A stretch of DNA of 64,000 nt, from contig CAZNDZ010000001.1 in assembly GCA_964572155.1 (NCBI GenBank), positions 271,300-335,299 on the forward strand, in the 5' to 3' direction. Numbering within the stretch: position 1 is the first letter of the stretch; the number at the start of each line of letters is the position of its first letter. The position numbers and the translations under genes are program-made. The notes below the pieces were generated by a model. The model searched no databases, was not told the origin of the DNA, and worked only from the letters and a program-made list of their open reading frames with translations. The DNA is from an uncultured Planctomycetales bacterium. Its GTDB lineage: Bacteria; Omnitrophota; Gorgyraeia; Zapsychrales; Fredricksoniimonadaceae. This document shows, piece by piece, positions 2,319 through 56,281 of this stretch.

Positions 2319-2319
2319 T

Positions 2320-14127: not shown

Positions 14128-14296
14128 TATAATCATTTATCCCTGCTAAGCACGTTAGGATTTGCGCTGTATTGAACCACAAAACTAACTCTAGGGAATA
14201 GGTTCTTGTAGACGCGCCTTGGCGGTCTCACACTTGTTCCCACCTGTGAAAACAGGTTCTCTTACACCAAGTTCGACGGCGGTGCGGGGTTTTTTA
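14128..14296 (+). ncRNA. Candidate small RNA or structured 5' leader. An extended -10 promoter, a ~150-nt GC-richer transcript with a GNRA-capped hairpin, and a T-tract immediately before rarA.
   Basis: TGgTATAAT is at 14125-14133. The hairpin CCTGT-GAAA-ACAGG is at 14242-14255. GGGGTTTTTT is at 14286-14295. There is no ORF and the RNA class is not identified. Confidence 0.25.
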
Positions 14297-33213: not shown

Positions 33214-36200
33214 ATGGTTTCCAAAAGAAGCATCCTAAGCGCAGCAATTTTAATTTCATTCCTATTTACAACCATTATCCCTGCCAACCGCGTTTTTGCA
33301 CTTGAAAGCACCCTTTTAACATTACCAAAACCTGGGACCATGGTTGCTGTCAGTCAACCGCTGGTGCCTGTTATGCTTAAAGGCTTACAGATTAATCCCA
33401 AAAATCCGTTGATCGTTGATTTCTTAGTTTCAAAAGGCGATGAGGTTTTAGGCCAAGCGCAATATTACAAAGAAATTGAAACCTTAGCCCGATATTTCCT
33501 CGCCAGCATGGCCATTCCAGAAGATCAATTATGGGTTAACTTATCCCCATTTGAAAAAGACAAGATCATAACCGACCCTTTAAGTCAAACCGAGATGGGC
33601 CAAAATATGTTGGCGCAAGATTATTTGCTTAAGCAATTAACAGCGTCGATGATTTACCCTGAAAAATCATTGGGGAAAGAATTTTGGAGCCGTATTTATG
33701 AACAAGCCAAGAATAAAACAGGTAATGCGAATATTCCTGTTAATACCTTTAATAAGGTGTGGATCTTAGCCGACACAGCCAATGCCGTTGAAAAAGGCAA
33801 CACCGTCATGATCACCGATGCGCATTTGAAAGTCATGTTGGAAGAAGATTATTTAGCCGCTAAGAAGCATGATGTTGTCTCAAACAATGAAAATTCTAGA
33901 ATCATCAGAGAGCTCATCATTCCGGAACTAGAAAAAGAAGTAAATACAGGCAAAAATTTCGCCCCATTGCGCCAAATCTTCAATGCTTTTGTGTTGTCTG
34001 TTTGGTATAAGCAAAACCTAAAACAATCCATCCTCAATCAAGTTTACGCCGATAAAACCAAACTGGGCGGCATCGAAGCCAAAGACAGACAAGCCAAACA
34101 AAAGATCTATGAGCGTTATATCCAAGCTTATAAGAAGGGCGTATTCAATTACATTAGAGAAGACAAAACACAGGGTGTCTCACAGCCACGCAAATATTTC
34201 TCAGGCGGAGAAGTCATCTCAGCGCAACATGTGAAATTTACCCGTGATGCAGCGATGTTTGCCGAGGCATTAACAAAGCCGTTGGATAGGGCGCGAGTTG
34301 AATTTGATGCAGCCATGAGAAGCGATGATCGCGGCAATTTCTTGTCTGTGATCGATAATGCAAACACGGATAATTTGCCCGAAGCAGCGGTTGCTATTCT
34401 TGAACAGCGCGCCAAAGACATTACAACAAGCGTCATAACAAAAAATGTGATTGAAGAAACACAGTCATTAGGGATACCCGTTAACATTAGGGTTAAGGAA
34501 ATAGCAGACCAAGATAATGTTTATAATGCCGAAAACATCATACAAAATGGCTATATCATTGAATATTCAAATGACATTAATCGTGAAAAAGGTGAAGGCG
34601 ATGCGGTTATTTATGTAACCAGTAGCTTTAGAAAGAAAATCGCTGATAACAATGGGTTGTTTTATTTTTATGTAAGAAAGATTCTAAAGATATATGAAAC
34701 GTCGGGCAATGCTGGCAGACAAAAAGAAGTGGATTTTATAAAAGCAAAAATAGAAGATGAAAAGCAAAGATTGAATGGGAGGGCAAAGATTGAAAAATCT
34801 TTGGCTTTAAGGATTCCTCCTGAAAGTTTCCCATGGGTATTGTTAGAGCGCGAAGCCAATGCATTATTAATCAATCCAACGTTATCGAAAGAACAGCGGA
34901 GCCCAGAGTATTTCAAAGAACGCGTAAAACACATTTTCCCAAATAGAAAGTTTAAGAAGATTGTTGTTCCGGGAACAGTGGCGTTTGAAGCATCGCAAGA
35001 AGCGTATCGATTGATGAAGAACAATGCTAATTTAAAGCTTATCAATGCCATGGATGGTGTGGCAAATTATGCAGATACAATCCCATCCACGGTCAAAGGG
35101 ATGATGGATCGTTTGAAAGAAGGCAAGCCTATTACCTTTGCATTTGGTGCTTCGAAATATAATCCGTCCTCTATCGCACACATTTCTGTCACCTTAGACG
35201 GAACATTCGCTCAAACAGGTGCATCCAGTTACATTGTCAATGTAACGCTCGAAGATGTCCGCAAGCCCTCGGTAAAAAAGTCAGCAAAGTCTCGTCTTAA
35301 ATTAGCCAAGGCGGATATCGAAGGTATTTTTAAGAATTTATTTACCATCTTAGATGTGAGTGAGCCAATCAATGGGTATGATCTAGGAAAATATAATGGG
35401 GAAGAAGTCTTCTTTCTAATTATCAAAATGTTAATACCTTATGGTTTGCAGGGTCCGCAATATTATGTCGCTGGTGAAGACCATTACTTTATTTTTGCAC
35501 CGTTGGGCAATGATCCTCAAAGCAAGTTCATTCAGTGGGATTTGATGGAAAATGAAAATGTACGGCAGCATTATACGTTTTATGCCAGCGAGTTTAATGG
35601 GGATGATTGGAAAACGTATCAAGAATTAGTTCGTCGTCAGGTGGTGTTGAGTAAAAATTTAGGACCAAGCACGGAAGCTAGATCCTTCTATTCAGATGAG
35701 GATAGTGCGCTCGATCGTAACGTTAAAGAAGGTATTATTAATGGCATCATTCAGGCTAAGACAAAAGAAAGATTGCTAGATGTTATGAATGCCGCGTCGA
35801 CGTTGCCCCGTTTTGATACAGCGGGTAAGGCGGTGGCAATTAACTTAGAGCATGACATACAAAAGAGTAGCGTTAAGGCGGTTTTGGTTCTTCCTCATCG
35901 ACAAGGTGCGCGGGGGCACGATAGTTTAAGAGATCAATTGGTTGAGGAGAAGAAACTAATCGTTATGCCCATGGAAGGGATCAAGCATGCTGTTTCAGCA
36001 ACAACTAATAGAAAATTCTTAGAACAAATTTTAACAGGCGTCTTTGATTATAATTATGGTTACGGGTTGACTATGGAAACCATGGAAAATATGAACAAAG
36101 ATCCCGAAATATTTCGCATCCTTGTACGACAAAGCGGCGTTAAGTTGCCCTTAGCATTACCATTGTTAATGCCAGAGCCGAGCGAACTAAAGGATTCAGT

Positions 36201-36720
36201 TAAACAAAAAGATTTTGAATTAAAAAGAGAGTTGCTAAAGTTAGGCGCACATCATGAAGAGGGCACAACACCTGCAGGCGATGAGTCGTACATTAAAGTG
36301 TTTGATGCGATGGGCAAGGAAGCCGTTTTTGTTGAATATTACATTGTAAATGGTCTAGATGAGCATGAGGGCGGGAGATTAAAAGATAAGAATACTGTAG
36401 AATACACGAAGATCACCGTCAATAAAGAAAGCCCAAATGGCCAAAAGATTTTAAAGCTCATTGAGGATTATGTGAAGCATTTAAATGATGCTGCGATGGT
36501 TTCTAAAGATATTGTGAATACGACACGCAATGAAAATAATGTGGGCGGTATCGAGCTTAATCGGAAAGATTTGAATTTGAATGTTACAAAAGAAGGGCAG
36601 GGGTTGCAGTTTGAGATGGATCCTGTTTTGTTGGAAGAGTTGAAGTCAGATAATTTTGGTGGGTTTAGACCGACGGTGTTGAGCATCACACCATTGAGGG
36701 CAAGCCCTGCATTGAATTAA
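33214..36720 (+). CDS. Giant secreted protein A (1168 aa). It has a signal peptide, a conserved N-domain (shared with B), a variable core and a conserved ~50-aa C-terminal module.
   Basis: A long uninterrupted ORF with signal peptide MVSKRSILSAAILISFLFTTIIPANRVFA. Residues ~30-340 are ~60% identical to protein B. The last ~50 aa align with B's C-terminus. Confidence 0.8.
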   Translation: MVSKRSILSAAILISFLFTTIIPANRVFALESTLLTLPKPGTMVAVSQPLVPVMLKGLQINPKNPLIVDFLVSKGDEVLGQAQYYKEIETLARYFLASMAIPEDQLWVNLSPFEKDKIITDPLSQTEMGQNMLAQDYLLKQLTASMIYPEKSLGKEFWSRIYEQAKNKTGNANIPVNTFNKVWILADTANAVEKGNTVMITDAHLKVMLEEDYLAAKKHDVVSNNENSRIIRELIIPELEKEVNTGKNFAPLRQIFNAFVLSVWYKQNLKQSILNQVYADKTKLGGIEAKDRQAKQKIYERYIQAYKKGVFNYIREDKTQGVSQPRKYFSGGEVISAQHVKFTRDAAMFAEALTKPLDRARVEFDAAMRSDDRGNFLSVIDNANTDNLPEAAVAILEQRAKDITTSVITKNVIEETQSLGIPVNIRVKEIADQDNVYNAENIIQNGYIIEYSNDINREKGEGDAVIYVTSSFRKKIADNNGLFYFYVRKILKIYETSGNAGRQKEVDFIKAKIEDEKQRLNGRAKIEKSLALRIPPESFPWVLLEREANALLINPTLSKEQRSPEYFKERVKHIFPNRKFKKIVVPGTVAFEASQEAYRLMKNNANLKLINAMDGVANYADTIPSTVKGMMDRLKEGKPITFAFGASKYNPSSIAHISVTLDGTFAQTGASSYIVNVTLEDVRKPSVKKSAKSRLKLAKADIEGIFKNLFTILDVSEPINGYDLGKYNGEEVFFLIIKMLIPYGLQGPQYYVAGEDHYFIFAPLGNDPQSKFIQWDLMENENVRQHYTFYASEFNGDDWKTYQELVRRQVVLSKNLGPSTEARSFYSDEDSALDRNVKEGIINGIIQAKTKERLLDVMNAASTLPRFDTAGKAVAINLEHDIQKSSVKAVLVLPHRQGARGHDSLRDQLVEEKKLIVMPMEGIKHAVSATTNRKFLEQILTGVFDYNYGYGLTMETMENMNKDPEIFRILVRQSGVKLPLALPLLMPEPSELKDSVKQKDFELKRELLKLGAHHEEGTTPAGDESYIKVFDAMGKEAVFVEYYIVNGLDEHEGGRLKDKNTVEYTKITVNKESPNGQKILKLIEDYVKHLNDAAMVSKDIVNTTRNENNVGGIELNRKDLNLNVTKEGQGLQFEMDPVLLEELKSDNFGGFRPTVLSITPLRASPALN

Positions 36721-36791
36721 GAGGGCAACAACATTGATGTTGTTGCGTATCGATTAACATGGATGTTAAACGTAATTCCAAGGAGTTTTAC

Positions 36792-39700
36792 ATGAACGGA
36801 TGTCGCAAATACATTTCTTTAACGGTGTTGGTCGCTTTCTTTTGCTCGACGTTGACGCCCATTAAAAATGCCAATGCTGCGCCTTTGGTTGCGGGTTTAC
36901 CCACGCCTGGGGCCATGGTCAATTTAAGCGCAACATATACGCCGCTATTGATCAAAGGCTTGCGTGTTCATCCAGAAAATCCATTGGTGTTTGATTTTAT
37001 CGTCGACACAGGCAACTCGCCCATTAAGAGCGACTCTAAAGAATTGCGTGCGCAGTCCGAAAAGCTCATCAAATATTTTTTAGCGACATTAACCATCCCC
37101 GAGAAAGATTTGTGGGTCAACCTTTCTCCTTATGAAAAAGATCGCATCATCGAAGAACCATTAGGCCAAACCGAACTAGGCCGCGACATGTTGGCGCAAG
37201 ATTACTTGCTCAAACAATTAACTGCCTCCTTGGTTTATCCTGAAAAAGAATTAGGTAAGAAATTTTGGGACAAAGTTTATGCTCAAGCCCGCGAACGTTT
37301 TGGTGTTACCAATATTCCGGTCAACACGTTTAACAAAGTTTGGATTTTGCCTGATCAAGCCGACATTTTTGTCCGCAACAACACAGCCTTTGTTGTTAAT
37401 GGTCATTTGAAAGTTATGCTTGAGGAAGATTATTTGGCATCAAAGAAAAACAGCGTCGCTAGCAGCAGTGAGAATTCTCAAATTATTCGGGAGATTATTT
37501 TGCCTGAGATTGAAAAAGAAGTTAATCAAGGTCAAAATTTTGCCCCATTGCGTCAAATCTTTAATTCCATGATTTTAGCGACGTGGTACAAAAAAAGCCT
37601 CAAAGAAGCGCTGCTCAACCAAGTGTATGCAAATAAAGCCAAGATCAATGGCGTCGATGCAGATGATAAAGCGATTAAAGCCAAGATTTACGAACAATAT
37701 TTACAAGCCTATAAGAAGGGTGTTTTTAATTATATCAAAGAGACAAACACATCAAATGGTCAAGTTACCCCCAAGAAGTATTTCTCCGGCGGGGAAGTCT
37801 TTACTAATATCCCTGTAAGTGAAATTTCAAATCCTTCACCCGCAATGATTGCACCAGCAGGCAGTTTATTTTCTGTGAATGCAGCGATGAGTAGCAGCGC
37901 TACTGTTTATAGAGCGGCAAGATTAAATGGTCTTGAGAAAGCTCAAAAAGCTAAAGAAGATGAAATAAATACCACGGTTAATCGTTATTTTGAAGCTTTG
38001 CAATATGCAGAACCACTTCAACAAAGACAGGTAGCTGAATATCAGGGTTTGGCTAGATTTATTTTGGAGGACTTAGATGAGCATGTTGATTCAGCGACGA
38101 GAAAGAAGCTCATTGCAAGCGTCATGACAAACATTGTGGGTTGGGCAAAGCAAGATCTAGATGGGAAATTGGATCCAAATGCAAAAGCTGTTTTTTCTTT
38201 AACAGCGTTTCCAATCATTCATTGGGGACACATCGAGTTGATCTTAAGAACGCTCAATCAAAAACATTTGTCTGGCCTTTCACTAGATCTTAGTGCTCAA
38301 AGTGCGAATAATCCATTAATTGGGGCTTCGTATGAGGACAGGATGTATTTGTTAAAAATCATGTTGCAAAGGTTTAATGGAAGTTTCTCGAGAGACAAAT
38401 TGACAGCGATTAATGAAGATCAGCGTCCAGAAGAAACCGGCGAACGCAGGCTTTTGGAGAGCATCAAAACAGCCAATAAAGGACAAACGCTTTATTATCC
38501 TGTTGGAAAAGGCTATGAGAGTACTATAGAACAATTTGCTGCATGGGCGCGAAATTCAGAGAATGCTAAGATTCTCGAAGAAAGGGATTTAAAACTCGTT
38601 GTTCTCGTCAATAGATTAAGCGAAGCTCAAAAAGTTTCTGCTAAACAAATAGCAAACAGGGTTAGTGTGGAAGTTTTAGATGGTGTTGATTTAGGCATTA
38701 ATAACACCGCCATCAGAGCGGGGCTCGCAAGCACTCCTAATAAGCCAGCAATTAACGGCATATGGTTTATTCCAAAGTCATTGGTTTTGCATCTTGCACG
38801 CATATCTCCAAGCACTTTAGGAAATATCATGGGGATTCCCGACATTCTTAAAGACATTGATCAAAAAGGCATGAGTTCAAGCATTGCTGTCTTAAAAGAC
38901 TTTATTGATAATGTTTATTCTGCACAAGGAAATTACCTGATCACAGAAGAGATTGTAGAGTTGTTCATGCCCAATCTAGCAGATGATAAAAAACAGGTTT
39001 TGGCGGATAAAATGCAATCTCTGTTGGATAAAGCGATGACTCAAATTAATCCAAGAGAAGTTGCTGCCGGCATCAGGTTTTGGGAAGGGTTGGATAAGAC
39101 AACAGTTATTAAGGGTGATTATTGGGCTTTACAAGAAAAGGATGTGTCGGATTTAGACAGCATTTCAGCATCTGAAGGTAAAGAATTGGAAAGCATTGGC
39201 GCCAATACCTTGAGAAATGGCCAAATTGCGGTGATGGGGCTTTGGGCAGGCGCAAGCTCTAGAATGAATACACATGAAGCGCCAGCTGAGATTAAGAAGA
39301 TAGTTAAGGGAAAAGAATTAGGGTCAAAAGCAGTTGTTCCAATTGGACAATATAATGGCGATGTTATTACGTATGCCGATATTGCCGCGTTTAATTTAAA
39401 GCGATTATTTGATCAGATCGATGCAGCTGCTAAAAAGGCAGGCATTGTGTCTAATGTTACTAATAATGTCGTTGGTTTTATGACCAATGATGCGTATCAA
39501 TCAGAACATGATGCAATGTTTATAGCGCATCAAAATTATGGCATGAAGAATCCCATACATTCATTCAGACAGCGCTTAGGTCCTATTTTTCAAGCACGTC
39601 CAATTGATGTTGAGAAATATTTTGGAGAAGAAAATAAACAAACATTTAAAAATGAAGAAGAGCGAAGTGCTTGGAGACAGAAAAAAGAAAGAGCTTTGAA

Positions 39701-42140
39701 AATTGCAGGAGAGTCAAGTTTACGCATTGATTCTAGGGGAGACGAGAGCGCTGTTATTGTCCCTGAAGATAGACAGCCGTTAGGGCATGGAGAATTTCTA
39801 ATGCAGCTTATTGAGTCTGGGGAAATCATAAGACTTATTGATCAAGGGATTAGATTTGTCTCTATTAGAAATGTAGATAACTATGCAGCAAAGTATGACA
39901 GTATGTGGCTTCGGACGATAGGGTATGCCGTTAAGAACAATCTCGACTTTTTGATAGAGAATTCATTGCGTGTTCCAGGACAAAAAGGTGGGGTCGGTGT
40001 CGGTACACCTAACGGACATGTTATCGGAGAAGATCCAATTCTGAATGCGGATATTGATAAAACAACAGATCGGCCCAAAGTTCCATCTACTTCAGGAAAA
40101 TGGATGAATAATGCCGTTGGTATTGCAAGCATACCTTACATTTTGCAATTTTTTAAGCAAGAGGGACAAAGTGATGCTGAATTAATTGATGAGTTAAGAA
40201 ATGCAAACGCAGAACAGCGTGCTGCGATTGCCGATCGAGGCAGAAAACTACTTCCAAAAATTTACGACGTTAAACCTGGAAAGTCTTCCGACGAGAAGTA
40301 TAAGGGCGGCTTAACAAGTAAGGGTGAAACAAATCTTTGGACATCTACAATTGTTTCGGGAAAAGACAAGAAGATTGCAGTTGTTGGTGTCAGAGGCATT
40401 GGGCATTTTGATTTAAATGCTTTTAAAGCAGCAACAGCTGAACAAAAAATTGAGATGTTAAGAAGAGTTCGTTTTATGGCAACGAAACAGTGGGATGTTC
40501 CAGAATCATCAAGGGTTAAATTAAAGAAAGAATTAGAAACATTGTTGGGCAGAGAAATGACAGAAGAAGAAGCGGGCTTAAGATTGGAAAGTTACGAAGG
40601 AAATAAGCCTCTCGCAGACCCAATGATAAAATATATTATGGAAGCCCCCTTAGTTGACGAAAATATTTTCCAAGGCATGAAAGATGATCCTGCAATGTCA
40701 GGCCAAGTTGGGCGAGGTGAGGATCAATTGCAGCAGAAGTTATTCACTACAGAACAAATGGGTGCTGGTGAAGCGGCTTTAGTAGCAACCTTGAATCAAA
40801 AGCCATTGACAATTGAGGAGCAGAGATCCTATTTGGAAAAGGCAAGAAATGCGTTCTTTAGTGAAGTTCAAGCAGTGCCTGAAATTATGAGTGGTATGCA
40901 AGATGCGTTTAAGCGATTTCATATTACTAGCATCACATTTGAAAGTGCTAGACAAGATCAACTCCCAAGAAATTTAGAGGCGTTGAAGAATCAACTAAAT
41001 GTTATTAAGAACACAGCTGTGCAATTGATGCAGAAGGCAGCGCAAGATAAGATCAATACGCTTCTTCCTATTTTGGTACAAACGGATAAGTTTGGAAGAA
41101 AGAAAATTGAGAATCTTCAAGTGTTACAAATAGAACTTAACGCATTAAAGAATTCTAACGTCAGTGCAGATCAACAATTTGATGCGTTAAAAATCATTTT
41201 TAATAAACTCAAAGCATTAGATCAGGCGATGACCGTTGCAGAGCTTAATCGTATTAATGTTTTGTATCCCAGCGACGAGAGCGTTAGGATGCTTGATAAG
41301 ATTAAAGAATCAGATATTGTGTCTTTGGGATTAGTAAATTCAGATGAGGATATAGAAGCCCCAGAAAAAGCGCGTGGATTTTTAAATGGCGAGTTTTCAG
41401 AGCAAGATCTTCAAAATATAACAACTGTTCAAAGAGGAACAGAAATATTCCAGTTTCTTGAAAAAGTAGGATTCTTAGTGCGTGTAAATGGCCATGCGAT
41501 TTCAAGCCATAGGAGTCAACTTGAATTAAGAAGTTTCATAGAAATGAACTTTCCAGAGAACTTAAATGTTGTTGATTTCTTCAATCAATTAAGAAGGCCT
41601 TCGGTAAGATACTATCCTAGAATGCCGGAATTATTGGTTGTTAAGAATGCGACTTTTGATGTTATCGCTGGAACTCGGGTTATTCCTGATACAGCATCAA
41701 AGGGCCAGAAAGATTATCCTTTGGGGTATACAAGTGCAGTAAAGGCAATTTACTTTTCCGAAAGATTCCTTGAGCGCATGAAGGATCAGGGCGTAAAGTT
41801 AGACGACCTGCTTGTTTTTGTGAATGCTGGAGAAACTCCCAAAGAGCGAGCGGAAATGTATGCCAAGTATCAAGCTTACAAGAGAATGTTGGCAAATAGA
41901 GACGATCAAGCCCAGTTAGCAAATCCAGGCGGTATTGATCTTAATACGAAGGGTATGAGATCCTCTGTTACGGGGGATAAGATTGATATTCAATTTGATC
42001 CGGCGATGGTTGAGCAGTTTAAACGTGGGGATTTTACGGGTGTTCGACCGGTGATCTTAAATGTGACGCCGCTCACAAGCGTGTTGCCATTATTAGGACT
42101 CGCGCCCCGTCGTGAAGACGATGTTGCATTGGGCGTTTAA
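36792..42140 (+). CDS. Giant secreted protein B (about 1782 aa). It has a signal peptide, the shared N-domain, a UDP-glucose-pyrophosphorylase-like nucleotidyltransferase domain, a helical region and the shared C-terminal module.
   Basis: The start is chosen at ATG 36792, 6 nt after AAGGAG. The track ORF starting at 36759 has no Shine-Dalgarno. Signal peptide is MNGCRKYISLTVLVAFFCSTLTPIKNANA. The nucleotidyltransferase motifs are …QPLGHGEFLMQLIESGEIIRLIDQGIRFVSIRNVDNY… and …QKGGVGVGTPNG…. Confidence 0.8.
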   Translation: MNGCRKYISLTVLVAFFCSTLTPIKNANAAPLVAGLPTPGAMVNLSATYTPLLIKGLRVHPENPLVFDFIVDTGNSPIKSDSKELRAQSEKLIKYFLATLTIPEKDLWVNLSPYEKDRIIEEPLGQTELGRDMLAQDYLLKQLTASLVYPEKELGKKFWDKVYAQARERFGVTNIPVNTFNKVWILPDQADIFVRNNTAFVVNGHLKVMLEEDYLASKKNSVASSSENSQIIREIILPEIEKEVNQGQNFAPLRQIFNSMILATWYKKSLKEALLNQVYANKAKINGVDADDKAIKAKIYEQYLQAYKKGVFNYIKETNTSNGQVTPKKYFSGGEVFTNIPVSEISNPSPAMIAPAGSLFSVNAAMSSSATVYRAARLNGLEKAQKAKEDEINTTVNRYFEALQYAEPLQQRQVAEYQGLARFILEDLDEHVDSATRKKLIASVMTNIVGWAKQDLDGKLDPNAKAVFSLTAFPIIHWGHIELILRTLNQKHLSGLSLDLSAQSANNPLIGASYEDRMYLLKIMLQRFNGSFSRDKLTAINEDQRPEETGERRLLESIKTANKGQTLYYPVGKGYESTIEQFAAWARNSENAKILEERDLKLVVLVNRLSEAQKVSAKQIANRVSVEVLDGVDLGINNTAIRAGLASTPNKPAINGIWFIPKSLVLHLARISPSTLGNIMGIPDILKDIDQKGMSSSIAVLKDFIDNVYSAQGNYLITEEIVELFMPNLADDKKQVLADKMQSLLDKAMTQINPREVAAGIRFWEGLDKTTVIKGDYWALQEKDVSDLDSISASEGKELESIGANTLRNGQIAVMGLWAGASSRMNTHEAPAEIKKIVKGKELGSKAVVPIGQYNGDVITYADIAAFNLKRLFDQIDAAAKKAGIVSNVTNNVVGFMTNDAYQSEHDAMFIAHQNYGMKNPIHSFRQRLGPIFQARPIDVEKYFGEENKQTFKNEEERSAWRQKKERALKIAGESSLRIDSRGDESAVIVPEDRQPLGHGEFLMQLIESGEIIRLIDQGIRFVSIRNVDNYAAKYDSMWLRTIGYAVKNNLDFLIENSLRVPGQKGGVGVGTPNGHVIGEDPILNADIDKTTDRPKVPSTSGKWMNNAVGIASIPYILQFFKQEGQSDAELIDELRNANAEQRAAIADRGRKLLPKIYDVKPGKSSDEKYKGGLTSKGETNLWTSTIVSGKDKKIAVVGVRGIGHFDLNAFKAATAEQKIEMLRRVRFMATKQWDVPESSRVKLKKELETLLGREMTEEEAGLRLESYEGNKPLADPMIKYIMEAPLVDENIFQGMKDDPAMSGQVGRGEDQLQQKLFTTEQMGAGEAALVATLNQKPLTIEEQRSYLEKARNAFFSEVQAVPEIMSGMQDAFKRFHITSITFESARQDQLPRNLEALKNQLNVIKNTAVQLMQKAAQDKINTLLPILVQTDKFGRKKIENLQVLQIELNALKNSNVSADQQFDALKIIFNKLKALDQAMTVAELNRINVLYPSDESVRMLDKIKESDIVSLGLVNSDEDIEAPEKARGFLNGEFSEQDLQNITTVQRGTEIFQFLEKVGFLVRVNGHAISSHRSQLELRSFIEMNFPENLNVVDFFNQLRRPSVRYYPRMPELLVVKNATFDVIAGTRVIPDTASKGQKDYPLGYTSAVKAIYFSERFLERMKDQGVKLDDLLVFVNAGETPKERAEMYAKYQAYKRMLANRDDQAQLANPGGIDLNTKGMRSSVTGDKIDIQFDPAMVEQFKRGDFTGVRPVILNVTPLTSVLPLLGLAPRREDDVALGV

Positions 42141-42181: not shown

Positions 42182-43417
42182 ATGAGCGAACAGGCGAAGA
42201 ATAAGAAATTAAATGTTTCATCTGCAGAAGAGTTGAAGATCCTGCGCACCATTGTGGACATTGCGTCCTCCGAGCTCGATCTTGTATTAACCCTTCAGTT
42301 GATTGTTAAAATTGTTACTGAAATTACCGCCGCTGATTCGGTTTTCATTTATCTCTTTGATGATAAGAAAGAAAACTTGGTGCTCATGGCATCCAAGACT
42401 AGCCATAAAAAAGAATTAGGGCAGTTGGAATTAAAGGTGGGCGAAGGTATTACCGGGTGGGTAGCTAAAGAGAACATGCCCGTTGCCATCAAGAGCCATG
42501 CCTATAAAGATCCTCGCTTTAAAGGGTTTGATGTGTTGCCAGAAGATCGCTACGAAGCCTTCCTTTCGGTGCCTATAGTATATAAGGGAAAAGCCATCGG
42601 GGTTGTTAACGTTCAACATAAACGCGAACAAGATTATTCCCAAACAACGGTTAACCTGCTTGAGATGATTGCCAAGCAAGTTGGCGGCGTCATTGATCAT
42701 GCGCGTCTTTTTGAAGAAACCAAGCAAAAAGCGCTGCAGTTTGATTCTTTGGTCAAGGTTAGCCAAAGCATCACCTCCGAACACTATTTAGACGAAATTT
42801 TAAATCTGATTGTGGTTGTGACCGCCGAGATGCTTAACTCTAAGATTTGCTCGATCATGTTGTTAGATGAAAAGGGCACAGAGTTATCGATTAAAGCAAC
42901 ACAATCATTAAGTGTGGACTATAAAAAGAAGCCAAATATTAGCGTAGAAAATTCTCTAACTGGTTCTGTTATAAAGACTAAAGAACCAGCTGTGGTTTAT
43001 GATGTGCAAAAAGAAGACAGGTATGCATATCGAGATCTAGCCTCCAAAGAAGGGTTAACCTCGATGGTGGCCGTTCCCATGATCCTCAAAGATAAAGCCA
43101 TTGGCGTTATCAATGTTTATACCAAGAAACACCATCGCTTCTCAAAAGAAGAGATCAATGTGTTGCAAATGGTTGCCAACCAAGCAGCGGTGGCGGTTGA
43201 AAATACCAAATTGATGGAAGAAGCCCTTAAAGCCAAGGAAGCCTTGGAAACACGCAAGTTAATCGAGCGCGCCAAGGGCATTATCATGAAAATGAACGGC
43301 CTCTCAGAAGACGCGGCCTATAAATTGATTCATAAAAAGAGCATGGATACCTGCCGATCAATGAAAGAAATCGCTGAGTCGATTATCTTAATGTCGGATT
43401 TGCAAAAGGGCATCTAG
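42182..43417 (+). CDS. GAF-GAF-ANTAR RNA-binding antitermination regulator
   Basis: Two GAF domains (…GEGITGWVAKENMPV…; …LTGSVIKTKEPAVVYDV…) and a C-terminal ANTAR helix bundle (…ALETRKLIERAKGIIMKMNGLSEDAAYKLIHKKSMD…). Confidence 0.8.
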   Translation: MSEQAKNKKLNVSSAEELKILRTIVDIASSELDLVLTLQLIVKIVTEITAADSVFIYLFDDKKENLVLMASKTSHKKELGQLELKVGEGITGWVAKENMPVAIKSHAYKDPRFKGFDVLPEDRYEAFLSVPIVYKGKAIGVVNVQHKREQDYSQTTVNLLEMIAKQVGGVIDHARLFEETKQKALQFDSLVKVSQSITSEHYLDEILNLIVVVTAEMLNSKICSIMLLDEKGTELSIKATQSLSVDYKKKPNISVENSLTGSVIKTKEPAVVYDVQKEDRYAYRDLASKEGLTSMVAVPMILKDKAIGVINVYTKKHHRFSKEEINVLQMVANQAAVAVENTKLMEEALKAKEALETRKLIERAKGIIMKMNGLSEDAAYKLIHKKSMDTCRSMKEIAESIILMSDLQKGI

Positions 43418-43437
43418 GGCTACCTTAAAAAATTTTA

Positions 43438-43465
43438 TTGACAAAATCGTTTTGTAGTATATACT
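43438..43465 (+). promoter_or_regulatory. Sigma70-type promoter for the amtB-1 leader: TTGACA, 16-bp spacer, TATACT.
   Basis: TTGACA is at 43438-43443 and TATACT at 43460-43465. Confidence 0.45.
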
Positions 43466-43598
43466 TACAACCGTAGTAAAAAATGAACGTTCGAAGCAAC
43501 GATGTTTCGGGCGATATTAAGGGCAACGTTTACGTCCTCTGACTGGCAAGATATATAAAGCCGCGGGGGATTTTTTGTTTTATACATATAGAAAACAT

Positions 43599-43662
43599 CA
43601 GTGACTGATGTGAAGGGCACAGAGGCTCAATCGTATTATTGAATACAGGTTGGGCTTTTTTT
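43599..43662 (+). promoter_or_regulatory. Leader RNA element: the CAGTGACT motif, a hexaloop hairpin GGGC-ACAGAG-GCTC, and an overlapping intrinsic terminator. This is a putative ANTAR target.
   Basis: The hexaloop hairpin is at 43615-43628. Its 3' arm GCTC is the start of the terminator 5' arm GCUCAAUC (43625-43632). That arm pairs with GGUUGGGC (43648-43655, 6 Watson-Crick pairs and 2 G-U). An inner GTATT/AATAC extension is present. The stem is followed by TTTTTTT at 43656-43662. Confidence 0.5.
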
Positions 43663-43686
43663 ATTGTCAAAATCAAGGAGGTACTT

Positions 43687-43809
43687 ATGGTATCTAAACA
43701 AGCAACTTTGGAACGATTCTTACATGCAATGGGTTTTTGTGTGGCTTTCGCGGTGATCGCGGTGGCGGCTGGCATGTTTTGGGCAGTTGAACATCATATT
43801 TTAGTGTAA
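43687..43809 (+). CDS. Small hydrophobic ORF (40 aa, one TM helix) immediately upstream of amtB-1
   Basis: ATG sits 5 nt after AAGGAGG (43675-43681). The product is MVSKQATLERFLHAMGFCVAFAVIAVAAGMFWAVEHHILV. It is below the 60-aa ORF-track cutoff. Confidence 0.4.
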   Translation: MVSKQATLERFLHAMGFCVAFAVIAVAAGMFWAVEHHILV

Positions 43810-43859
43810 ACAGATAACAAACGTATAAACAATAATAACAAAAACAAAGGAGTCAAGAA

Positions 43860-45095
43860 ATGGACGCAAATCCAATTAATGCCGGAGACACATCATGGGT
43901 TCTGGTCTCAACAGCGCTCGTTATGTTGATGACCCCGGGCTTAGCCTTCTTCTACGGCGGCATGGTCAGACGTAAGAACATTTTAGGTGTTTTAATGCAA
44001 TGTATGATCTGTTTGGCGCTGGTTAGCGTCTTGTGGGTTGTATATGGTTACAGCTTAGCGTTTGGTAAAGGTAATGCGTTTATCGGCGGTTTGGATTGGG
44101 CTATGCTTAAGGATGTTGGTCAAACAGCCAACGCTGATTATGCAGCAACAATTCCTCACCAAGTGTTTATGATCTTCCAAGGCATGTTCGCGGTGATCAC
44201 GCCTGCGCTTATCATTGGTTCTTTCGCAGAGCGCATGAAGTTTTCCGCATTCGTTGTTTTCACCGTTTTATGGTTAACGCTTGTATATTCTCCTATCTGT
44301 CACATGGTTTGGGCTGTTGGTGGTTTAGTCCGCGGTTGGGGTGCACTTGACTTCGCCGGTGGTACTGTTGTTCACATCAACGCAGGTATCGCAGGTTTAA
44401 TCTCTGCCATCTACTTAGGTAAACGTATCGGTACTGAAAAACCTGGTATGCACAATGTGCCTTTCGTTGTTTTGGGTGCAGCATTGCTCTGGTTTGGTTG
44501 GTTTGGTTTCAACGCTGGTTCTGCATTAGCAGCTAACGGTTTAGCTGGTTCTGCATTTGTCGTTACAAACACAGCCGCAGCTGCAGCAGCATTAGCATGG
44601 GCTGTTATGGAATGGATCTTTGCAGGTAAACCAACCATGATCGGTACAGTTTCTGGTGCCGTCGCTGGTTTAGTTGCGATCACTCCTGCAGCAGGTTTCG
44701 TTGATGTGGGCGGAGCGCTTATCATCGGTTTAGTTGTTTCTGTCATCTGCTACATGATGGTTGCTTTTGTGAAGACAAAGTTAGGGTACGATGATACATT
44801 AGATGCATTCGGTGTTCACTGTATCGGCGGTATTTGGGGCGCTTTAGCCACTGGTTTATTTGCTCAAAAGGCTATAAACTCTGCCGGTGCTGATGGTTTG
44901 TTCTATGGTAATCCTGCTCAATTCATCATTCAGATCAAAGCGGTATTGTTTACGGTTGCGTACACAGCCGTTGTCACATGGGTGATCTGTTTCGTGGTTG
45001 ACAAAGTCATGGGCTTGCGTGCTAATGCTGAAGACGAAGTCATGGGCTTGGATTTGAGCCAACATCATGAACGTGCATACACAATTTTAGACTAA
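43860..45095 (+). CDS. amtB: Ammonium transporter (Amt family), copy 1
   Basis: 411 aa with an 11-TM Amt fold and the conserved twin-His region. Confidence 0.9.
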   Translation: MDANPINAGDTSWVLVSTALVMLMTPGLAFFYGGMVRRKNILGVLMQCMICLALVSVLWVVYGYSLAFGKGNAFIGGLDWAMLKDVGQTANADYAATIPHQVFMIFQGMFAVITPALIIGSFAERMKFSAFVVFTVLWLTLVYSPICHMVWAVGGLVRGWGALDFAGGTVVHINAGIAGLISAIYLGKRIGTEKPGMHNVPFVVLGAALLWFGWFGFNAGSALAANGLAGSAFVVTNTAAAAAALAWAVMEWIFAGKPTMIGTVSGAVAGLVAITPAAGFVDVGGALIIGLVVSVICYMMVAFVKTKLGYDDTLDAFGVHCIGGIWGALATGLFAQKAINSAGADGLFYGNPAQFIIQIKAVLFTVAYTAVVTWVICFVVDKVMGLRANAEDEVMGLDLSQHHERAYTILD

Positions 45096-45123
45096 TCTAA
45101 CTTTTTTCACGAAAGGAAAGGCA

Positions 45124-45465
45124 ATGAAATTAATTATCGCAATCATCCAGCCTCATCGCCTCGACGATGTAAAGCGCGAGTTATATGCGGCGGATGTTAA
45201 TTTGATCACCGTATCAGAAGTGTTAGGCCACGGCCGTCAAGTTGGTGTTGACGAATTTTACCGCGGTGTTAAAGAAACAGGTAACTTGTTGCGTAAGATC
45301 CAAATTGAGATCGCGGTCAACGAAGATTTCGTTGAACCATCCATCAAGGCGATCATCAAGGGTGCACGCACAGGTAAAATCGGCGATGGTAAGATCTTCG
45401 TCTTAGATTTACCACGCACCATCCGTATTCGTACGGGCGAAGAAGGCACCAAGGCCATCGGCTAA
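45124..45465 (+). CDS. glnK: Nitrogen regulatory protein P-II (GlnK-like)
   Basis: 113 aa with the P-II fold and T-loop …GHGRQVGVDEFYRGVKE…. Position 51 is Glu rather than Tyr. Confidence 0.9.
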   Translation: MKLIIAIIQPHRLDDVKRELYAADVNLITVSEVLGHGRQVGVDEFYRGVKETGNLLRKIQIEIAVNEDFVEPSIKAIIKGARTGKIGDGKIFVLDLPRTIRIRTGEEGTKAIG

Positions 45466-45474
45466 GTTTGCCGC

Positions 45475-45503
45475 TTGACTGAAAATAAATAACACGATAT
45501 CAT
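45475..45503 (+). promoter_or_regulatory. Sigma70-type promoter for the amtB-2 leader: TTGACT, 17-bp spacer, TATCAT.
   Basis: TTGACT is at 45475-45480 and TATCAT at 45498-45503. Confidence 0.45.
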
Positions 45504-45546
45504 GGCTCGTCTTTATGGGCGATGATGTCTGTAGGGCATAAGCTTT

Positions 45547-45596
45547 GAGGCTTGAGGATTCTGTTAAACATAGAATTCTCAGGCCTCTTTGTTTTT
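45547..45596 (+). terminator. Intrinsic terminator/attenuator within the amtB-2 leader
   Basis: A 16-bp stem GAGGCTTGAGGATTCT/AGAATTCTCAGGCCTC with 2 mismatches or wobbles and a 9-nt loop. It is followed by TTTGTTTTT and lies 80 nt upstream of the amtB-2 ATG. Confidence 0.6.
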
Positions 45597-45675
45597 GTGG
45601 CATTGGTGCCAGCGGTTCCGATGAGGGAAAAGGCGATAATCAAAGGATATATGATGATGCAGGGGAGTTTATATA

Positions 45676-46914
45676 ATGGAAGGCATTTCACAAATCAGCG
45701 CCGGAGATACGGCGTGGGTGCTGGTGTGCGCCGCGTTGGTCTTATTGATGACGCCAGCATTGGGTTTCTTCTATGGAGGGATGGTCCGTCGTAAAAATGT
45801 TTTAGGTATTTTGATGCAATGCATGAGTTGTTTGGCCTTGATTAGTATTTTGTGGGGCATTTATGGCTACAGTTTGGCGTTTGCACCTGGAAATTTGATT
45901 TTTGGTGGGCTTGATTGGTTTATGCTCAAAGGTGTTGGTGTAACACCCAATAGCGACTATGCGCCAACCATACCGCATGCTGCGTTTATGATTTTTCAAT
46001 GCATGTTTGCGGTCATCACCCCCGCAGTCATTGTGGGGTCATACGCAGAACGTGTGAAGTTTTCTGCATTTTTATTGTTCACCGTTTTATGGCTAACCTT
46101 TGTTTATTGCCCTGTCGCGCATATGGCCTGGGGCATGGGCGGACTATTTCGCAACATGGGCATCCTTGATTTTGCCGGCGGCACCGTTGTTGAAATCAAC
46201 TGCGGGATTGCAGGTTTAGTCACCGCATTATTTTTAGGTAAGCGCATCGGCATTAGTCATCCAACATTGCACAATATACCTTTTGTCGTCTTAGGGGCAG
46301 GTTTATTATGGTTTGGGTGGCTTGGCTTTAACGCGGGCTCTGCTCTCTCGGCTAACGGCGTTGCGGTCAATGCCTTTGTCACGACCAATATGGCTGCAGC
46401 CGCAGCCGCCACCAGCTGGGCGATTGTGGAATGGTGTTTGACAGGTAAACCAACCATCTTTGGTGCCGTCACAGGTGCGGTGGCAGGTTTGGTTGCCATC
46501 ACCCCAGCTGCGGGCTTTGTTGATTTTACAGGGGCCTTAATCATTGGCTTTGTTGTGAGCGTCATCAGCTACTTTTTCGTTGGCGCTATCAAGCATAAAT
46601 TCCAATATGATGATTCGCTCGATGCGTTTGGTGTTCATGCAGTGGGTGGTGCATGGGGCATGTTGGCCACAGGCTTATTAGCCACAACAACCGTCAATGC
46701 CGCAGGTGCAAATGGTTTACTAAACGGTAACCCAAAGCAATTTAGCATACAACTCATGTGTGTGATCATGACCATGGTTTATTGTGCGGCGGTTACCTTG
46801 GTGATCTGTTTTGTCGTCGACAAAATGATTGGCATGCGGGTTAATCGTGAGGATGAGGTCATGGGTTTAGACTTAACCCAGCATCATGAAAGAGCTTACA
46901 CCATCTTAGATTAA
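45676..46914 (+). CDS. amtB: Ammonium transporter (Amt family), copy 2
   Basis: 412 aa, about 60% identical to copy 1. Confidence 0.9.
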   Translation: MEGISQISAGDTAWVLVCAALVLLMTPALGFFYGGMVRRKNVLGILMQCMSCLALISILWGIYGYSLAFAPGNLIFGGLDWFMLKGVGVTPNSDYAPTIPHAAFMIFQCMFAVITPAVIVGSYAERVKFSAFLLFTVLWLTFVYCPVAHMAWGMGGLFRNMGILDFAGGTVVEINCGIAGLVTALFLGKRIGISHPTLHNIPFVVLGAGLLWFGWLGFNAGSALSANGVAVNAFVTTNMAAAAAATSWAIVEWCLTGKPTIFGAVTGAVAGLVAITPAAGFVDFTGALIIGFVVSVISYFFVGAIKHKFQYDDSLDAFGVHAVGGAWGMLATGLLATTTVNAAGANGLLNGNPKQFSIQLMCVIMTMVYCAAVTLVICFVVDKMIGMRVNREDEVMGLDLTQHHERAYTILD

Positions 46915-46940
46915 TCGCCTGTTTTAGGTATTAAAAAAAC

Positions 46941-46969
46941 TTGACTTTATGGTCGATTTTCAGTAAAAT
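46941..46969 (+). promoter_or_regulatory. Sigma70-type promoter for the glnN leader: TTGACT, 17-bp spacer, TAAAAT.
   Basis: TTGACT is at 46941-46946 and TAAAAT at 46964-46969. Confidence 0.45.
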
Positions 46970-46970
46970 T

Positions 46971-47046
46971 CAGTACTTAATTTGAGGGCACAGACGTCCT
47001 CCTTGAACCACAATGTTAGTGTGCGCCAAGGAGGACTTTTTATTTT
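46971..47046 (+). promoter_or_regulatory. Leader RNA element: the CAGTACT motif, a hexaloop hairpin GAGGGC-ACAGAC-GTCCTC, and an overlapping intrinsic terminator. This is a putative ANTAR target.
   Basis: The hexaloop hairpin is at 46984-47001. Its 3' arm GTCCTC is the start of the terminator 5' arm GTCCTCCTTG (46996-47005). That arm pairs perfectly with CAAGGAGGAC (47027-47036). The stem is followed by TTTTTATTTT at 47037-47046. The terminator 3' arm contains an AAGGAGG Shine-Dalgarno. Confidence 0.5.
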
Positions 47047-47079
47047 ATGGAATCTAACAACAACCAGGGGGGTCTATGA
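47047..47079 (+). CDS. 10-codon upstream ORF MESNNNQGGL. Its stop overlaps the glnN start codon (ATGA).
   Basis: ATG at 47047 directly follows the terminator T-tract. The stop TGA is at 47077-47079 and overlaps glnN ATG 47076-47078. The only strong Shine-Dalgarno in the area (47028-47034) serves this uORF. Confidence 0.35.
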   Translation: MESNNNQGGL

Positions 47080-53906: not shown

Positions 53907-53919
53907 GAGAGGACGTTGC

Positions 53920-54915
53920 ATGGAAACGGTATTGTTAATTGGTGGACGATCGTTTATCGGTGGGCATGTTTGTCGCACATTGATTAAACGCGGCTACAAT
54001 GTTTTGTTGCATTCAACGGGGACATCAAAATTTGATAATTTAGTCGACGTGATGCCGCATCAACAGATCACGCCGGTGTCGTGTTCATATGAGAATAAAG
54101 AACAAATGCGCTCGATTATGCAAAAAGCACAGTGCGTTGTGTTTCTGGCGCCACCGCCGGGGAAACAAACCGTGGGTCAAGAAAAAACCAAAGAGCGCGA
54201 TTTTGATAATACCCGTAATGTTTTAGATGTCATAGCTGCGTGCCAAATCAAGAAATCTGTTTTCATTTCAACATGCAGCACGATTGGTAAAGTTGAAGAG
54301 GGTAGTGCGGATGAAACTAGTGTCCCCAAAGATACGCAAGGATGGGCAGGGTTAGCTTTTAAATTCAAGTTAGAGAAGTTGATCATGGAATATTTTCATA
54401 AAGGGCTGCCTATTGTCATTGTAAACCCGACGATGTTTATCGGTGAATATGATACAAAGCCATCTTCCGGCGAGTTCTTTCGGTTTATTGATAAGGCGCC
54501 ATTTATTTTCTTGCCCAAAGCAAAGATGAACATAGTCAATTTGGAAGATGCCGGATTAGGCGTTGTCTTAGCGTTAGAGAAAGGCCGCCCAGGTGAACGT
54601 TACTTATTGGGAGGTTTAAATATTTTGCATGAAGAATTGATTACGCGCATTAAACAGTGCGGCGGGCAAAAAACACCGTGGCTTGTGATGCCGTATCCCT
54701 TGTGTGTTTTAGCTTCATATGCGTCAGAATTATTAAATGTGATCTTAAAGCAAGATAAACCAGCCATCCCATTAATTGGGATTGAGTTAACCGTGCACGG
54801 TAATCAGCATTACTCATGTGAGAAAGCAAAAAAAGAATTGGGATATGTTCCGGGGGAAACATGGTCTGCCGTTGACCGTGCGTACAAATGGTATAAAGAT
54901 CATGGGATGCTATAG
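53920..54915 (+). CDS. NAD-dependent epimerase/dehydratase (SDR family)
   Basis: N-terminal Rossmann motif LLIGGRSFIGGHV. 331 aa. Confidence 0.8.
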   Translation: METVLLIGGRSFIGGHVCRTLIKRGYNVLLHSTGTSKFDNLVDVMPHQQITPVSCSYENKEQMRSIMQKAQCVVFLAPPPGKQTVGQEKTKERDFDNTRNVLDVIAACQIKKSVFISTCSTIGKVEEGSADETSVPKDTQGWAGLAFKFKLEKLIMEYFHKGLPIVIVNPTMFIGEYDTKPSSGEFFRFIDKAPFIFLPKAKMNIVNLEDAGLGVVLALEKGRPGERYLLGGLNILHEELITRIKQCGGQKTPWLVMPYPLCVLASYASELLNVILKQDKPAIPLIGIELTVHGNQHYSCEKAKKELGYVPGETWSAVDRAYKWYKDHGML

Positions 54916-54940
54916 TTTAAAAATCATGGAGGGATTTATC

Positions 54941-56269: not shown

Positions 56270-56281
56270 GAAAGTTATTTC

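Follow-up and report, generated by a model that had tools for sequence, protein, structure and literature searches.

A conserved C-terminal module co-occurs with an N-terminal domain in a very large family of Omnitrophota cassette proteins

The window (the whole stretch of 64,000 nt that was analysed) carries two large adjacent ORFs, A and its paralogue B, which are, with all their features, on the + strand. ORF A (1168 aa, P0145; 33214..36720) opens with a Sec-type signal-peptide-like sequence recognised by inspection (aa 1-29, ...NRVFA/LE; 33214..33300), made of a K/R n-region, a 16-aa hydrophobic core and an A-x-A-like site. It is followed by a conserved N-domain (aa 31-346; 33304..34251; HMM match 1e-198), an uncharacterised middle and a truncated subtype of what we call the C module; A gave no Pfam, NCBIfam or PDB match. 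The truncated module (aa 1103-1168; 36520..36717) covers profile positions 2-66 (E 2e-18 for P0145) and reads GGIELNRKDLNLNVTKEGQGLQFEMDPVLLEELKSDNFGGFRPTVLSITPLRASPALN, then the stop. A short junction motif, D-A-A-M, is present at aa 345-348 (34246..34257), at aa 365-368 (34306-34317) and at aa 1092-1095 (36487..36498), the last copy being 17 aa upstream of GGIELN.

ORF B (1793 aa, P0152; 36759..42140) is represented in the database by P0007, which begins with the Met encoded at nt 36792. Its signal-peptide-like sequence, also found by inspection (aa 12-40, ...KNANA/AP; 36792..36878), leads into the N-domain (aa 40-361; 36876..37841; HMM match about 2e-203 to 5e-202). A junction variant, N-A-A-M (aa 374-377; 37878..37889), marks the start of the first cassette. 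Further on lies a UDP-glucose-pyrophosphorylase-like (UDPGP-like) cassette (39027..40697; Pfam UDPGP 2e-7, PDB 4m2b/2oef 2e-6) bounded by D-K-A-M (aa 757-760) and D-P-A-M (aa 1310-1313), then a D-Q-A-M motif (aa 1488-1491; 41220..41231) and the full C module (aa 1715-1793; 41901..42137; E 7e-32 for P0007). The latter, GGIDLNTKGMRSSVTGDKIDIQFDPAMVEQFKRGDFTGVRPVILNVTPLTSVLPLLGLAPRREDDVALGV up to the stop, shows in order D-Q-A-Q, GGIDLN, I-D-I-Q-F-D-P-A-M, G-V-R-P-V-I-L-N-V-T-P-L, L-P-L-L-G-L and an acidic tail.

The original prediction was that A and B, otherwise divergent, share a C-terminal module that might be a secretion or sorting signal. Both C-terminal peptides on which it was based were found in the translated ORFs, and the homology of the module, which spans ~65-78 aa, was confirmed by BLASTP (23/53 identities, i.e. 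43%, E 2e-9) and by phmmer on the six-frame translation of the window (E 7e-9 and 3e-9), where no third copy was detected. The similarity of the two tails is far above chance. The words 'otherwise divergent' need correcting: the signal peptide and the N-terminal ~320-340 aa are also common to A and B, at 55% identity (BLASTP, E 9e-121).

A profile search with the C module returned 3587 cluster representatives at E<=1e-3 (795 at E<=1e-10): as the prediction had anticipated, there are other carriers, thousands of proteins with the module at their extreme C-terminus and unrelated sequence upstream. In 150/150 matches listed, which were 74-3895 aa long, the match ended 0-37 residues from the C-terminus; all carriers with a named source were from Omnitrophota. 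The module combines G-G-I-D-[LMF]-N, a strand I-x-I-x-F-D-P-A, G-[FV]-x-P-V-I-[IL]-N-I-T-P-[IL], L-P-L-L-G-L and a Glu-rich tail. Within it P-x-x-x-x-x-P-L-L-G-L is near-invariant, and the short charged tail that follows has a median length of 14 aa with 19% Glu. The A module lacks P-L-L-G-L and the acidic tail, and the truncation is kept in the A-orthologues of two other loci (L001 and L002); because this tailless subfamily is conserved, some members evidently do without the P-L-L-G-L tail. In neither A nor B did the module have a Pfam or NCBIfam match at E<=1, in line with the earlier view that it matches none of the familiar sorting domains.

The N-domain (~320 aa) had 1301 relatives at E<=1e-10 in a profile search, and no sequence or fold relative outside them was detected, PDB included; like the C module, it matches nothing in Pfam, NCBIfam or PDB. 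It was present in 43/48 C-module matches of at least 800 aa. For two of the five others, longer cluster mates do have it; the remaining ones are a split gene pair and a gene cut by a transposase, P0026 being left out. At 15 genomic loci all complete genes had both N-domain and C module, and the ORFs with the C module only were pieces of frameshifted genes. Both parts were also found in nine short complete members (533-589 aa), and P0081 is a natural minimal member with a signal peptide, half an N-domain and a C module. Since signal peptide, N-domain and C module were together in every complete gene examined, the idea of a portable tag on unrelated proteins does not hold. What emerges is a very large Omnitrophota-specific family, to which A and B belong, built as Sec-type signal peptide, N-domain of ~320 aa, cassettes and, as its end-piece, a C module of ~75 aa. 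N-domain identities track C-module identities (Mantel r 0.67, p 0.001): the two parts co-diversify, which can also come from simple co-inheritance.

Between these constant parts lie one to many variable cassettes shuffled between paralogues. Residues 721-1293 of B match residues 400-956 of P0011, which carries the UDPGP-like cassette at another place in the chain (38% identity over 581 aa); similarly, residues 975-1448 of P0013 match P0035 398-874, P0108 367-844 and P0012 421-866. Many cassettes are complete proteins from their native N-terminus onward, and whole enzymes of cytoplasmic type (PGI, hexokinase, PGM, UDPGP) are frequent among them; a Pfam scan of 32 members at E<=1e-3 matched 29 families, 25 of them listed, and the cargo also includes PMM, receiver domains, HEAT, NUDIX and methyltransferases. 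The junction motif, D-x-A-M, is 22-fold enriched (198 observed versus 9.1 expected), with 16-17 copies in 3-kaa members, and is conserved as a peptide but not as DNA. It precedes the cassettes, whose homology begins at it, and embedded enzymes start at the junction Met (hexokinase in P0013; PGI in P0044, with the variant D-A-A-Q). A Sec-, Tat- or lipoprotein-type signal peptide comes directly after 10/185 junctions against 13/1344 other internal Met (p 1.5e-4). The motif occurs at most 16 aa upstream of GGID in 27% of C modules and is missing upstream of half of them; some lineages hardly use it (P0144, P0058). At one locus (L019), an 86-aa ORF begins exactly at the Met of the D-x-A-M upstream of the C module.

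In the AlphaFold model of P0180 the pLDDT is 85-95 for the N-domain, below 50 for the linker and 67-87 for the C module. The latter has a single DSSP strand (474-479), present as the same lone strand in P0081; in both models the module consists of this strand, one to three short helices and an extended segment (pLDDT 60-87), the P-L-L-G-L part being extended and hydrophobic. At this moderate model confidence, the C module does not form an autonomous beta-sandwich and, because it has only one strand, would need a partner outside itself. A 19-aa stretch, P-V-I-I-N-I-T-P-L-P-S-V-L-P-L-L-G-L, has a Kyte-Doolittle mean of 1.7-2.0 in several members.

A comparison with known systems gave partial likenesses. 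The gingipain polyproteins RgpA and Kgp, T9SS cargo of Bacteroidota, are processed into several pieces, and T9SS CTDs are likewise conserved extreme C-terminal domains (~70-100 aa) on Sec-exported, otherwise unrelated and often very large multi-module proteins. Their fold is a compact Ig-like beta-sandwich of ~7 strands (PMC11285876), whereas the C-module models show one strand, helices and coil. Moreover, neither A nor B matched TIGR04183 or Por_Secre_tail, no T9SS core gene (PorK/L/M/N, SprA, PorU/V) was seen in the 64-kb window, the carriers belong to Omnitrophota and not to Bacteroidota, and T9SS cargo is not known to share an obligatory N-domain of the kind always found here in complete genes. 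In MARTX toxins, conserved N- and C-terminal arms surround a shuffled effector array and an internal protease releases the effectors; these toxins are exported by a T1SS, without a Sec signal peptide. The family resembles them in its constant ends, its cassettes exchanged between paralogues or strains and its short inter-cassette sites (where processing is putative), but its constant parts, of 320 + 75 aa, are far smaller and lack relatives in sequence or fold, and RTX repeats and a cysteine protease are absent from A, B and the 25 of 29 families listed for the 32 members scanned. An RTX-type T1SS is further contradicted by the Sec-type N-termini of A and B, the lack of a HemolysinCabind match and the neighbours of A and B, which are sucCD, a DRTGG protein and a GAF-ANTAR regulator, with no adjacent ABC or MFP gene. 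LPXTG/sortase, PEP-CTERM/exosortase and GlyGly-CTERM/rhombosortase substrates also combine an N-terminal signal peptide with a short C-terminal motif, a hydrophobic stretch and a charged tail, and L-P-L-L-G resembles L-P-x-T-G in spacing. Here, however, the hydrophobic stretch lies ahead of L-P-L-L-G-L, which is the opposite order, the tail is acidic and not basic, no helix is predicted, no NCBIfam model matches, and the module is 75 aa long with a structured upstream part. No sortase, exosortase or rhombosortase was found in the window, nor next to the family genes of four further loci. As for autotransporters (T5SS), a single-stranded module of 65-78 aa is no beta-barrel of ~250-300 aa, and there was no Pfam Autotransporter match.

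We infer that the role of the C module, in trafficking or assembly, is specific to this family and not that of a proteome-wide sorting tag. The explanation we prefer, which we regard as an even bet, is that it is the C-terminal constant half of a two-part frame for trafficking, assembly or processing of the cargo. It would act jointly with the N-domain on its own chain, possibly by docking its beta-strand and hydrophobic segment onto the N-domain sheet, as suggested by predicted secondary structure in a region of moderate pLDDT; alternatively, one partner might read both. The pair could mark a complete full-length chain and serve, after Sec targeting, as a handle to traffic, anchor or present the variable cargo, which would probably part from the frame at the D-x-A-M junctions. 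Cohesin-dockerin pairs and NRPS/PKS docking domains are comparable in that they, too, are small, conserved and placed at the ends of enzymes with diverse functions; by analogy the modules could assemble multi-enzyme complexes, family genes being found in tandem arrays, but there is no sequence similarity and here both modules are on one chain behind a signal peptide. Some members have hydrophobic signal-peptide-like segments in their middle: should such segments cross the membrane, N-domain and C module would end up on its two different sides, which counts against the frame. Export of the whole chain is also hard to reconcile with ATP- or UTP-dependent cargo (hexokinase, PGM, UDPGP, PGI). A split variant (L016), where the C module is on a polypeptide without signal peptide, counts against the frame reading as well.

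Were the C module an autonomous sorting or secretion signal, unlinked machinery would export, anchor or cleave the proteins and the role of the N-domain would be unrelated. This general reading is only partly supported: the strict extreme C-terminal position, the flexible linker ahead of the module, the lack of match to known domains, the Sec-type signal peptides, which T9SS and sortase substrates have too, and a near-invariant motif and charged tail resembling a recognition or cleavage motif all speak for it. We nevertheless judge it unlikely, as the module was seen without N-domain only where gene calls are truncated, split or fragmentary (P0026 left out), P-L-L-G-L is lost in the A subfamily, the acidic tail and the lack of a transmembrane helix set the module apart from known tripartite CTERM signals, and no curated sorting-domain model matches. 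Neither a transporter or sortase-like gene nor any other conserved gene adjoined family genes in the window or at four independent loci; and a simple surface-display or secretion tag fits poorly because the cargo is largely of cytoplasm type. Insertion of the 19-aa stretch as a membrane tail-anchor, the acidic tail staying on the far side, would suit its hydrophobicity and its position before a charged tail, but is very unlikely given its three to four conserved prolines, its Asn, Thr and Ser residues, the extended coil without helix in the models and its truncation in the A subfamily.

Another reading, also unlikely in our view, takes the ORFs as polyprotein precursors cut at D-x-A/M. The C module would then be freed as a ~70-aa peptide with a role of its own, perhaps membrane-associated or as a processing cofactor, instead of serving the intact chain as a signal. 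Enrichment and peptide-level conservation of the motif, the start of cassette homology at it, the enzymes and signal peptides that begin at junctions, and its position close to GGID in a fraction of modules and at the 86-aa ORF all favour this, and cleavage of Omnitrophota giants was raised as an open question by West-Roberts et al. (10.1101/2023.11.21.568195). Against it, the cleavage is putative, no protease domain was found in A, B or the N-domain, half of the modules have no copy of the motif upstream, some lineages use it very little, and D-x-A-M might alternatively act as a helix-capping structural linker. Finally, chance similarity or the end of a locally duplicated domain, which the adjacency of A and B might have suggested, has next to no probability: with thousands of independent carriers with unrelated middles it is refuted by the profile search. 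The low-confidence linker that parts cargo from module in two AlphaFold models also argues against a piece integral to the upstream fold. Both conditions named in the original prediction for its refutation thus fail: the module is no private duplication and does not belong to the fold directly ahead of it.

The bacteria of the phylum Omnitrophota are ultra-small, ubiquitous, uncultured and believed to rely on hosts or prey, and we know of no genetic system for them. Whether their very long multi-enzyme proteins are exported, where they act and whether they are cleaved is a puzzle. The giants described by West-Roberts et al. 2023 and in a 2026 preprint (10.1101/2023.11.21.568195; 10.64898/2026.06.07.730766) are from the same phylum and also have an N-terminal signal peptide or transmembrane segment and the same cargo (PGM/PMM, hexokinase, receiver domains, HEAT, NUDIX, methyltransferases); the proteins treated there are of at least 10-30 kaa, and the passages covered hold no description of the N-domain, C module or D-x-A-M junction. 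The present family is undescribed so far, and these three elements, which define thousands of such proteins and mark cassette boundaries, are searchable and testable handles. Tentatively, there may exist an Omnitrophota polyprotein or cassette system that places whole genes in frame between the signal-peptide plus N-domain head and the C module, among them genes for sugar-phosphate housekeeping enzymes and for proteins that retain a Sec, Tat or lipoprotein signal. Release would occur at a D-x-A/M processing site, with the C module as an obligatory terminal cap licensing processing or delivery, and the same grammar may reach the giants; if so, it would supply the cleavage points whose absence is noted by West-Roberts et al. 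(10.1101/2023.11.21.568195). If the junctions are processing sites, cleavage can be tested by re-searching existing metaproteomes, and a trafficking handle formed by N-domain and C module, if confirmed, would amount to a new route for moving folded-enzyme cargo. Annotation pipelines, for their part, may count cassette-embedded PGI, hexokinase and PGM as ordinary cytoplasmic enzymes.

The DNA, a bacterial chromosome segment of about 42% G+C, has tRNAs, a 6S RNA, aminoacyl-tRNA synthetases and further housekeeping genes besides two ORFs placed head to tail on the + strand: A (33214-36720, 1168 aa) and B (36759-42140, 1793 aa). Their translations end exactly as quoted in the original prediction, which saw in the common C-terminus a possible secretion or sorting signal on otherwise divergent proteins. 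The C-terminal likeness is genuine (23 identities out of 53, E = 2e-9 with BLASTP) but the two proteins are not otherwise divergent: BLASTP also revealed a common N-terminal region of about 340 aa with 55% identity (E = 9e-121). The conserved N-domain (about 320 aa, common to A and B) lies at 33304-34251 in A and 36876-37841 in B (+ strand), and is preceded in both, as judged by inspection, by a Sec-type signal-peptide-like N-terminus. B has two candidate start codons, at 36759 and 36792; the database holds both forms (P0152, 1793 aa; P0007, 1782 aa), and the signal-peptide-like segment comes after the second Met (36792).

In the window, the C module was found only in A and B (phmmer against all six frames). 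Eight module sequences made up a profile that was run against 1.84 billion cluster representatives, and it picked out 3587 carriers at E ≤ 1e-3, of which 795 reached E ≤ 1e-10. A word-index homology search with the module gave six fragments only. In all 150 matches listed, 0-37 residues (usually 0-10) lay between the end of the match and the C-terminus, and the carriers among the matches listed ranged from 74 to 3895 aa. Their named sources are all Candidatus Omnitrophota/Omnitrophica, save a few other labels on short or co-assembled contigs. From N to C, the full module comprises G-G-I-D-[LMF]-N, one conserved Gly, [VI]-x-[IM]-x-F-D-P-A, then G-[FVI]-x-P-V-I-[IL]-N-I-T-P-[IL]-x-[SN]-x-L-P-L-L-G-L and a Glu-rich tail (median 14 aa). 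The module of B is complete. That of A ends early (...ITP[LM]...P[AIL]LN), as do those of its orthologues in loci L001 and L002, so that they form a conserved truncated subtype. Pfam and NCBIfam searches on A and B and a PDB sequence profile search matched the module to no known sorting domain, as had been claimed; it is a real, highly significant, family-defining and apparently undescribed element. An oddity is P0002 (96 aa, on a 596-nt contig), in which an AsnC-type HTH N-terminus is joined straight to the C module, probably as a chimera.

The C module does not travel alone. Among the 48 C-module matches of at least 800 aa, 43 had the N-domain at residues ~30-350. Four of the five exceptions were explained: P0041 and P0114 are N-truncated calls whose longer cluster mates carry the N-domain, P0075 is the downstream half of a gene split in two (L016), the upstream half of which has the signal peptide and N-domain, and P0034 is a family member truncated by a transposase (L020); the fifth, P0026, was left out. 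Every complete gene in 15 genomic loci had both parts, including that of L009, whose divergent C module was missed by the HMM; the C-only ORFs in these loci were pieces of frameshifted genes. The sampling of loci was biased since it used type-1 module patterns only. Both parts were also present in 9 out of 9 short complete members (533-589 aa), and pairwise identities of N-domain and C module were correlated (Mantel r = 0.67, p = 0.001, 47 members). C-only proteins were rejected as proof of a portable tag: they were contig-end fragments, frameshift pieces (L011, L012), N-truncated calls (P0041, P0114), or transposase-cut (L020) or split (L016) genes. The C module is one half of a two-ended frame, not a free tag. 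A likeness between it and the start of the N-domain was an artefact of MAFFT misalignment (A4), with an hhalign probability of 0.3%.

Three loci deserve description. In L016, gene 1 (1136-3013) encodes a signal peptide, the N-domain and some cargo before it reaches a stop; beyond a spacer of 156 nt, gene 2 (3170-6136, P0075), which lacks a signal peptide, encodes the C module together with a receiver domain and UDPGP. In L020, a Transposase_mut (IS256-type) gene (23-1075) lies immediately upstream of the N-truncated P0034 (1372-4971), which suggests that the latter was broken by an insertion sequence. L019, a 1.1-kb contig, has an 86-aa ORF (48-308) made of the C module alone and starting exactly at the Met of D-T-A-M, with a stop eight codons upstream and the next family gene at 312; it is possibly a pseudogene remnant.

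Family genes are multi-copy, and two or three of them often stand in tandem; single MAGs have at least four paralogues among the best 120 matches. The window pairing, with an A-like gene ahead of a B-like one, recurs in L001 and L002. The N-domain has 1301 relatives at E ≤ 1e-10, all from Omnitrophota; two fragments on contigs of about 2 kb (P0223, P0241) are labelled Heimdallarchaeota and Pacearchaeota, probably through mis-binning. No Pfam, NCBIfam or PDB sequence relative of the N-domain was detected. Its invariant polar residues (e.g. in the W-V-N-L-S-P-x-E and L-K-Q-x-T-A-S motifs) could be catalytic. No conserved gene neighbour was found: in the window, L003, L004, L005 and L015 the family genes are flanked by unrelated housekeeping genes, and the co-occurring transporter or sortase-like gene that a sorting signal had led one to look for does not adjoin them.

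AlphaFold gave a low-confidence model for the minimal member P0081 (mean pLDDT 63) and a better one for the short complete member P0180 (mean pLDDT 71.7, pTM 0.66, 85-row alignment). In the latter, the N-domain has a helix-plus-long-hairpin form, predicted confidently (pLDDT 85-95), and a disordered linker leads to the C module (pLDDT 67-87), where the model places a single strand, a helix that begins at D-P-x-M, a hydrophobic segment in extended form and, at the terminus, short helices. Neither model had a Foldseek match at E ≤ 0.001 in PDB or BFVD. In these models the C module stands apart from the cargo fold and does not make a beta-sandwich of its own. Its lone DSSP strand needs a partner, and other strands occur in the N-domain only; judging from secondary structure, the models probably dock the C module there. 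Some internal transmembrane helices suggested by a crude hydropathy scan were false (e.g. the first receiver-domain strand in P0196), so topology is not argued from that scan.

Between the two ends of the frame lie shuffled cassettes. All-against-all BLAST found the same cassette at positions that differ from one member to the next: B 721-1293 corresponds to P0011 400-956; P0013 975-1448 matches P0035 398-874, P0108 367-844 and P0012 421-866; P0044 1111-1707 matches P0011 1275-1854. Pfam identified in the middles hexokinase, phosphoglucose isomerase (PGI; E = 5.6e-199), PGM/PMM, UDPGP, aldose epimerase, dCMP deaminase, 2H phosphodiesterase, NUDIX and methyltransferase enzymes, together with receiver domains, ankyrin repeats and HEAT repeats. 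The second cassette of B is UDP-glucose-pyrophosphorylase-like; the middle of A had no detectable relative in Pfam, NCBIfam or PDB. Some embedded enzymes are full-length (PGI at P0044 617-1097, hexokinase at P0013 392-797, and PGM/PMM cassettes; carriers P0044, P0013, P0011 and P0035). Metabolic reconstructions of Omnitrophota may tally cassette-embedded PGI, hexokinase and PGM/PMM as free cytoplasmic enzymes.

The cassette junctions are marked by a short peptide, D-x-A-M, which occurs 198 times in 48 large members against 9.1 expected (22-fold), with up to 16-17 copies in 3-kaa proteins. It lies at most 60 aa after the N-domain in 45% of members (1.3% expected) and at most 16 aa upstream of GGID in 27%. 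Homology between cassettes sets in 0-30 aa ahead of the Met of the motif; in P0013 the hexokinase Pfam model, from its position 6, begins one residue after D-L-A-M, and in P0044 the native PGI N-terminus comes after D-A-A-Q. A Sec-, Tat- or lipoprotein-type signal peptide directly follows 10 of 185 internal junctions versus 13 of 1344 other internal Met (p = 1.5e-4), as in P0059 (D-N-A-M-S-T-R-R-E-F-I...). On the + strand, A has copies at aa 345 (34246-34257), 365 (34306-34317) and 1092 (36487-36498), and B at aa 757 (39027-39038), 1310 (40686-40697), 1488 (41220-41231) and, within the C module, 1747 (41997-42008), plus an N-A-A-M variant at aa 374. The flanking DNA showed no conservation beyond the codons, apart from a wobble bias in the Ala codon (GCG or GCC in 83% of copies versus 54% elsewhere, p = 1e-6), and selection therefore acts on the peptide; a DNA recombination site and a Shine-Dalgarno/start context were both discarded on that ground.

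Two preprints deal with long or giant Omnitrophota proteins that carry the same repertoire of cargo and have a signal peptide or transmembrane segment at the N-terminus; both ask about cleavage, and according to one no cleavage point is known (10.1101/2023.11.21.568195; 10.64898/2026.06.07.730766). The accessible portions of these preprints and of Seymour et al. 2023 (PMC10066038) mention neither the N-domain, the C module nor D-x-A-M. In mechanism the family comes closest to T9SS CTD cargo (gingipain polyproteins among them), MARTX toxins and tripartite CTERM signals; those membership tests that were run placed it in none of these classes.

A two-ended frame with D-x-A-M-delimited cassettes is a more informative result than a sorting signal. 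The analysis establishes the architecture and where it occurs, the coupling of N-domain and C module, the shuffling of cassettes and the junction motif. From these, the proteins would be Sec-targeted cargo carriers in which the C module works with the N-domain as a constant handle, and the D-x-A-M junctions would be the sites where cargo parts from the frame. The sorting-signal reading is partly supported: it keeps the strict C-terminal end of the module in listed carriers in its favour, but in the complete genes examined the module is always paired with the N-domain; that it is an autonomous signal read by unlinked machinery is doubtful. That a polyprotein is cut to free the module as a small peptide seems unlikely. 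A tail anchor, for which the extended hydrophobic segment and the Glu-rich tail behind it are the elements to weigh, is very improbable. The main tension is between an export signal at the start of the chain and a cargo of cytoplasmic type: enzymes that depend on ATP or UTP are sensible only in a cytoplasm, the cell's own or a host's, and so are internal Sec/Tat signals.

Elsewhere in the window, a nitrogen-assimilation cluster lies directly downstream of B (42182-49196), in the order double-GAF ANTAR regulator, amt, P-II gene, second amt and type III glutamine synthetase. At 51414-59232, a single ORF joins a family-2 glycosyltransferase to DUF1302, a fusion that looks unusual; after it come genes for an epimerase, a DUF1329/LolA-like protein and a BNR/Ycf48-like protein, then an ORF of 665 aa without Pfam match. 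The 6S RNA (14137-14294; Rfam RF00013, 49.1 bits, barely over the gathering score) is flanked by a 194-aa ORF on one side and an MgsA-type AAA+ ATPase gene on the other.
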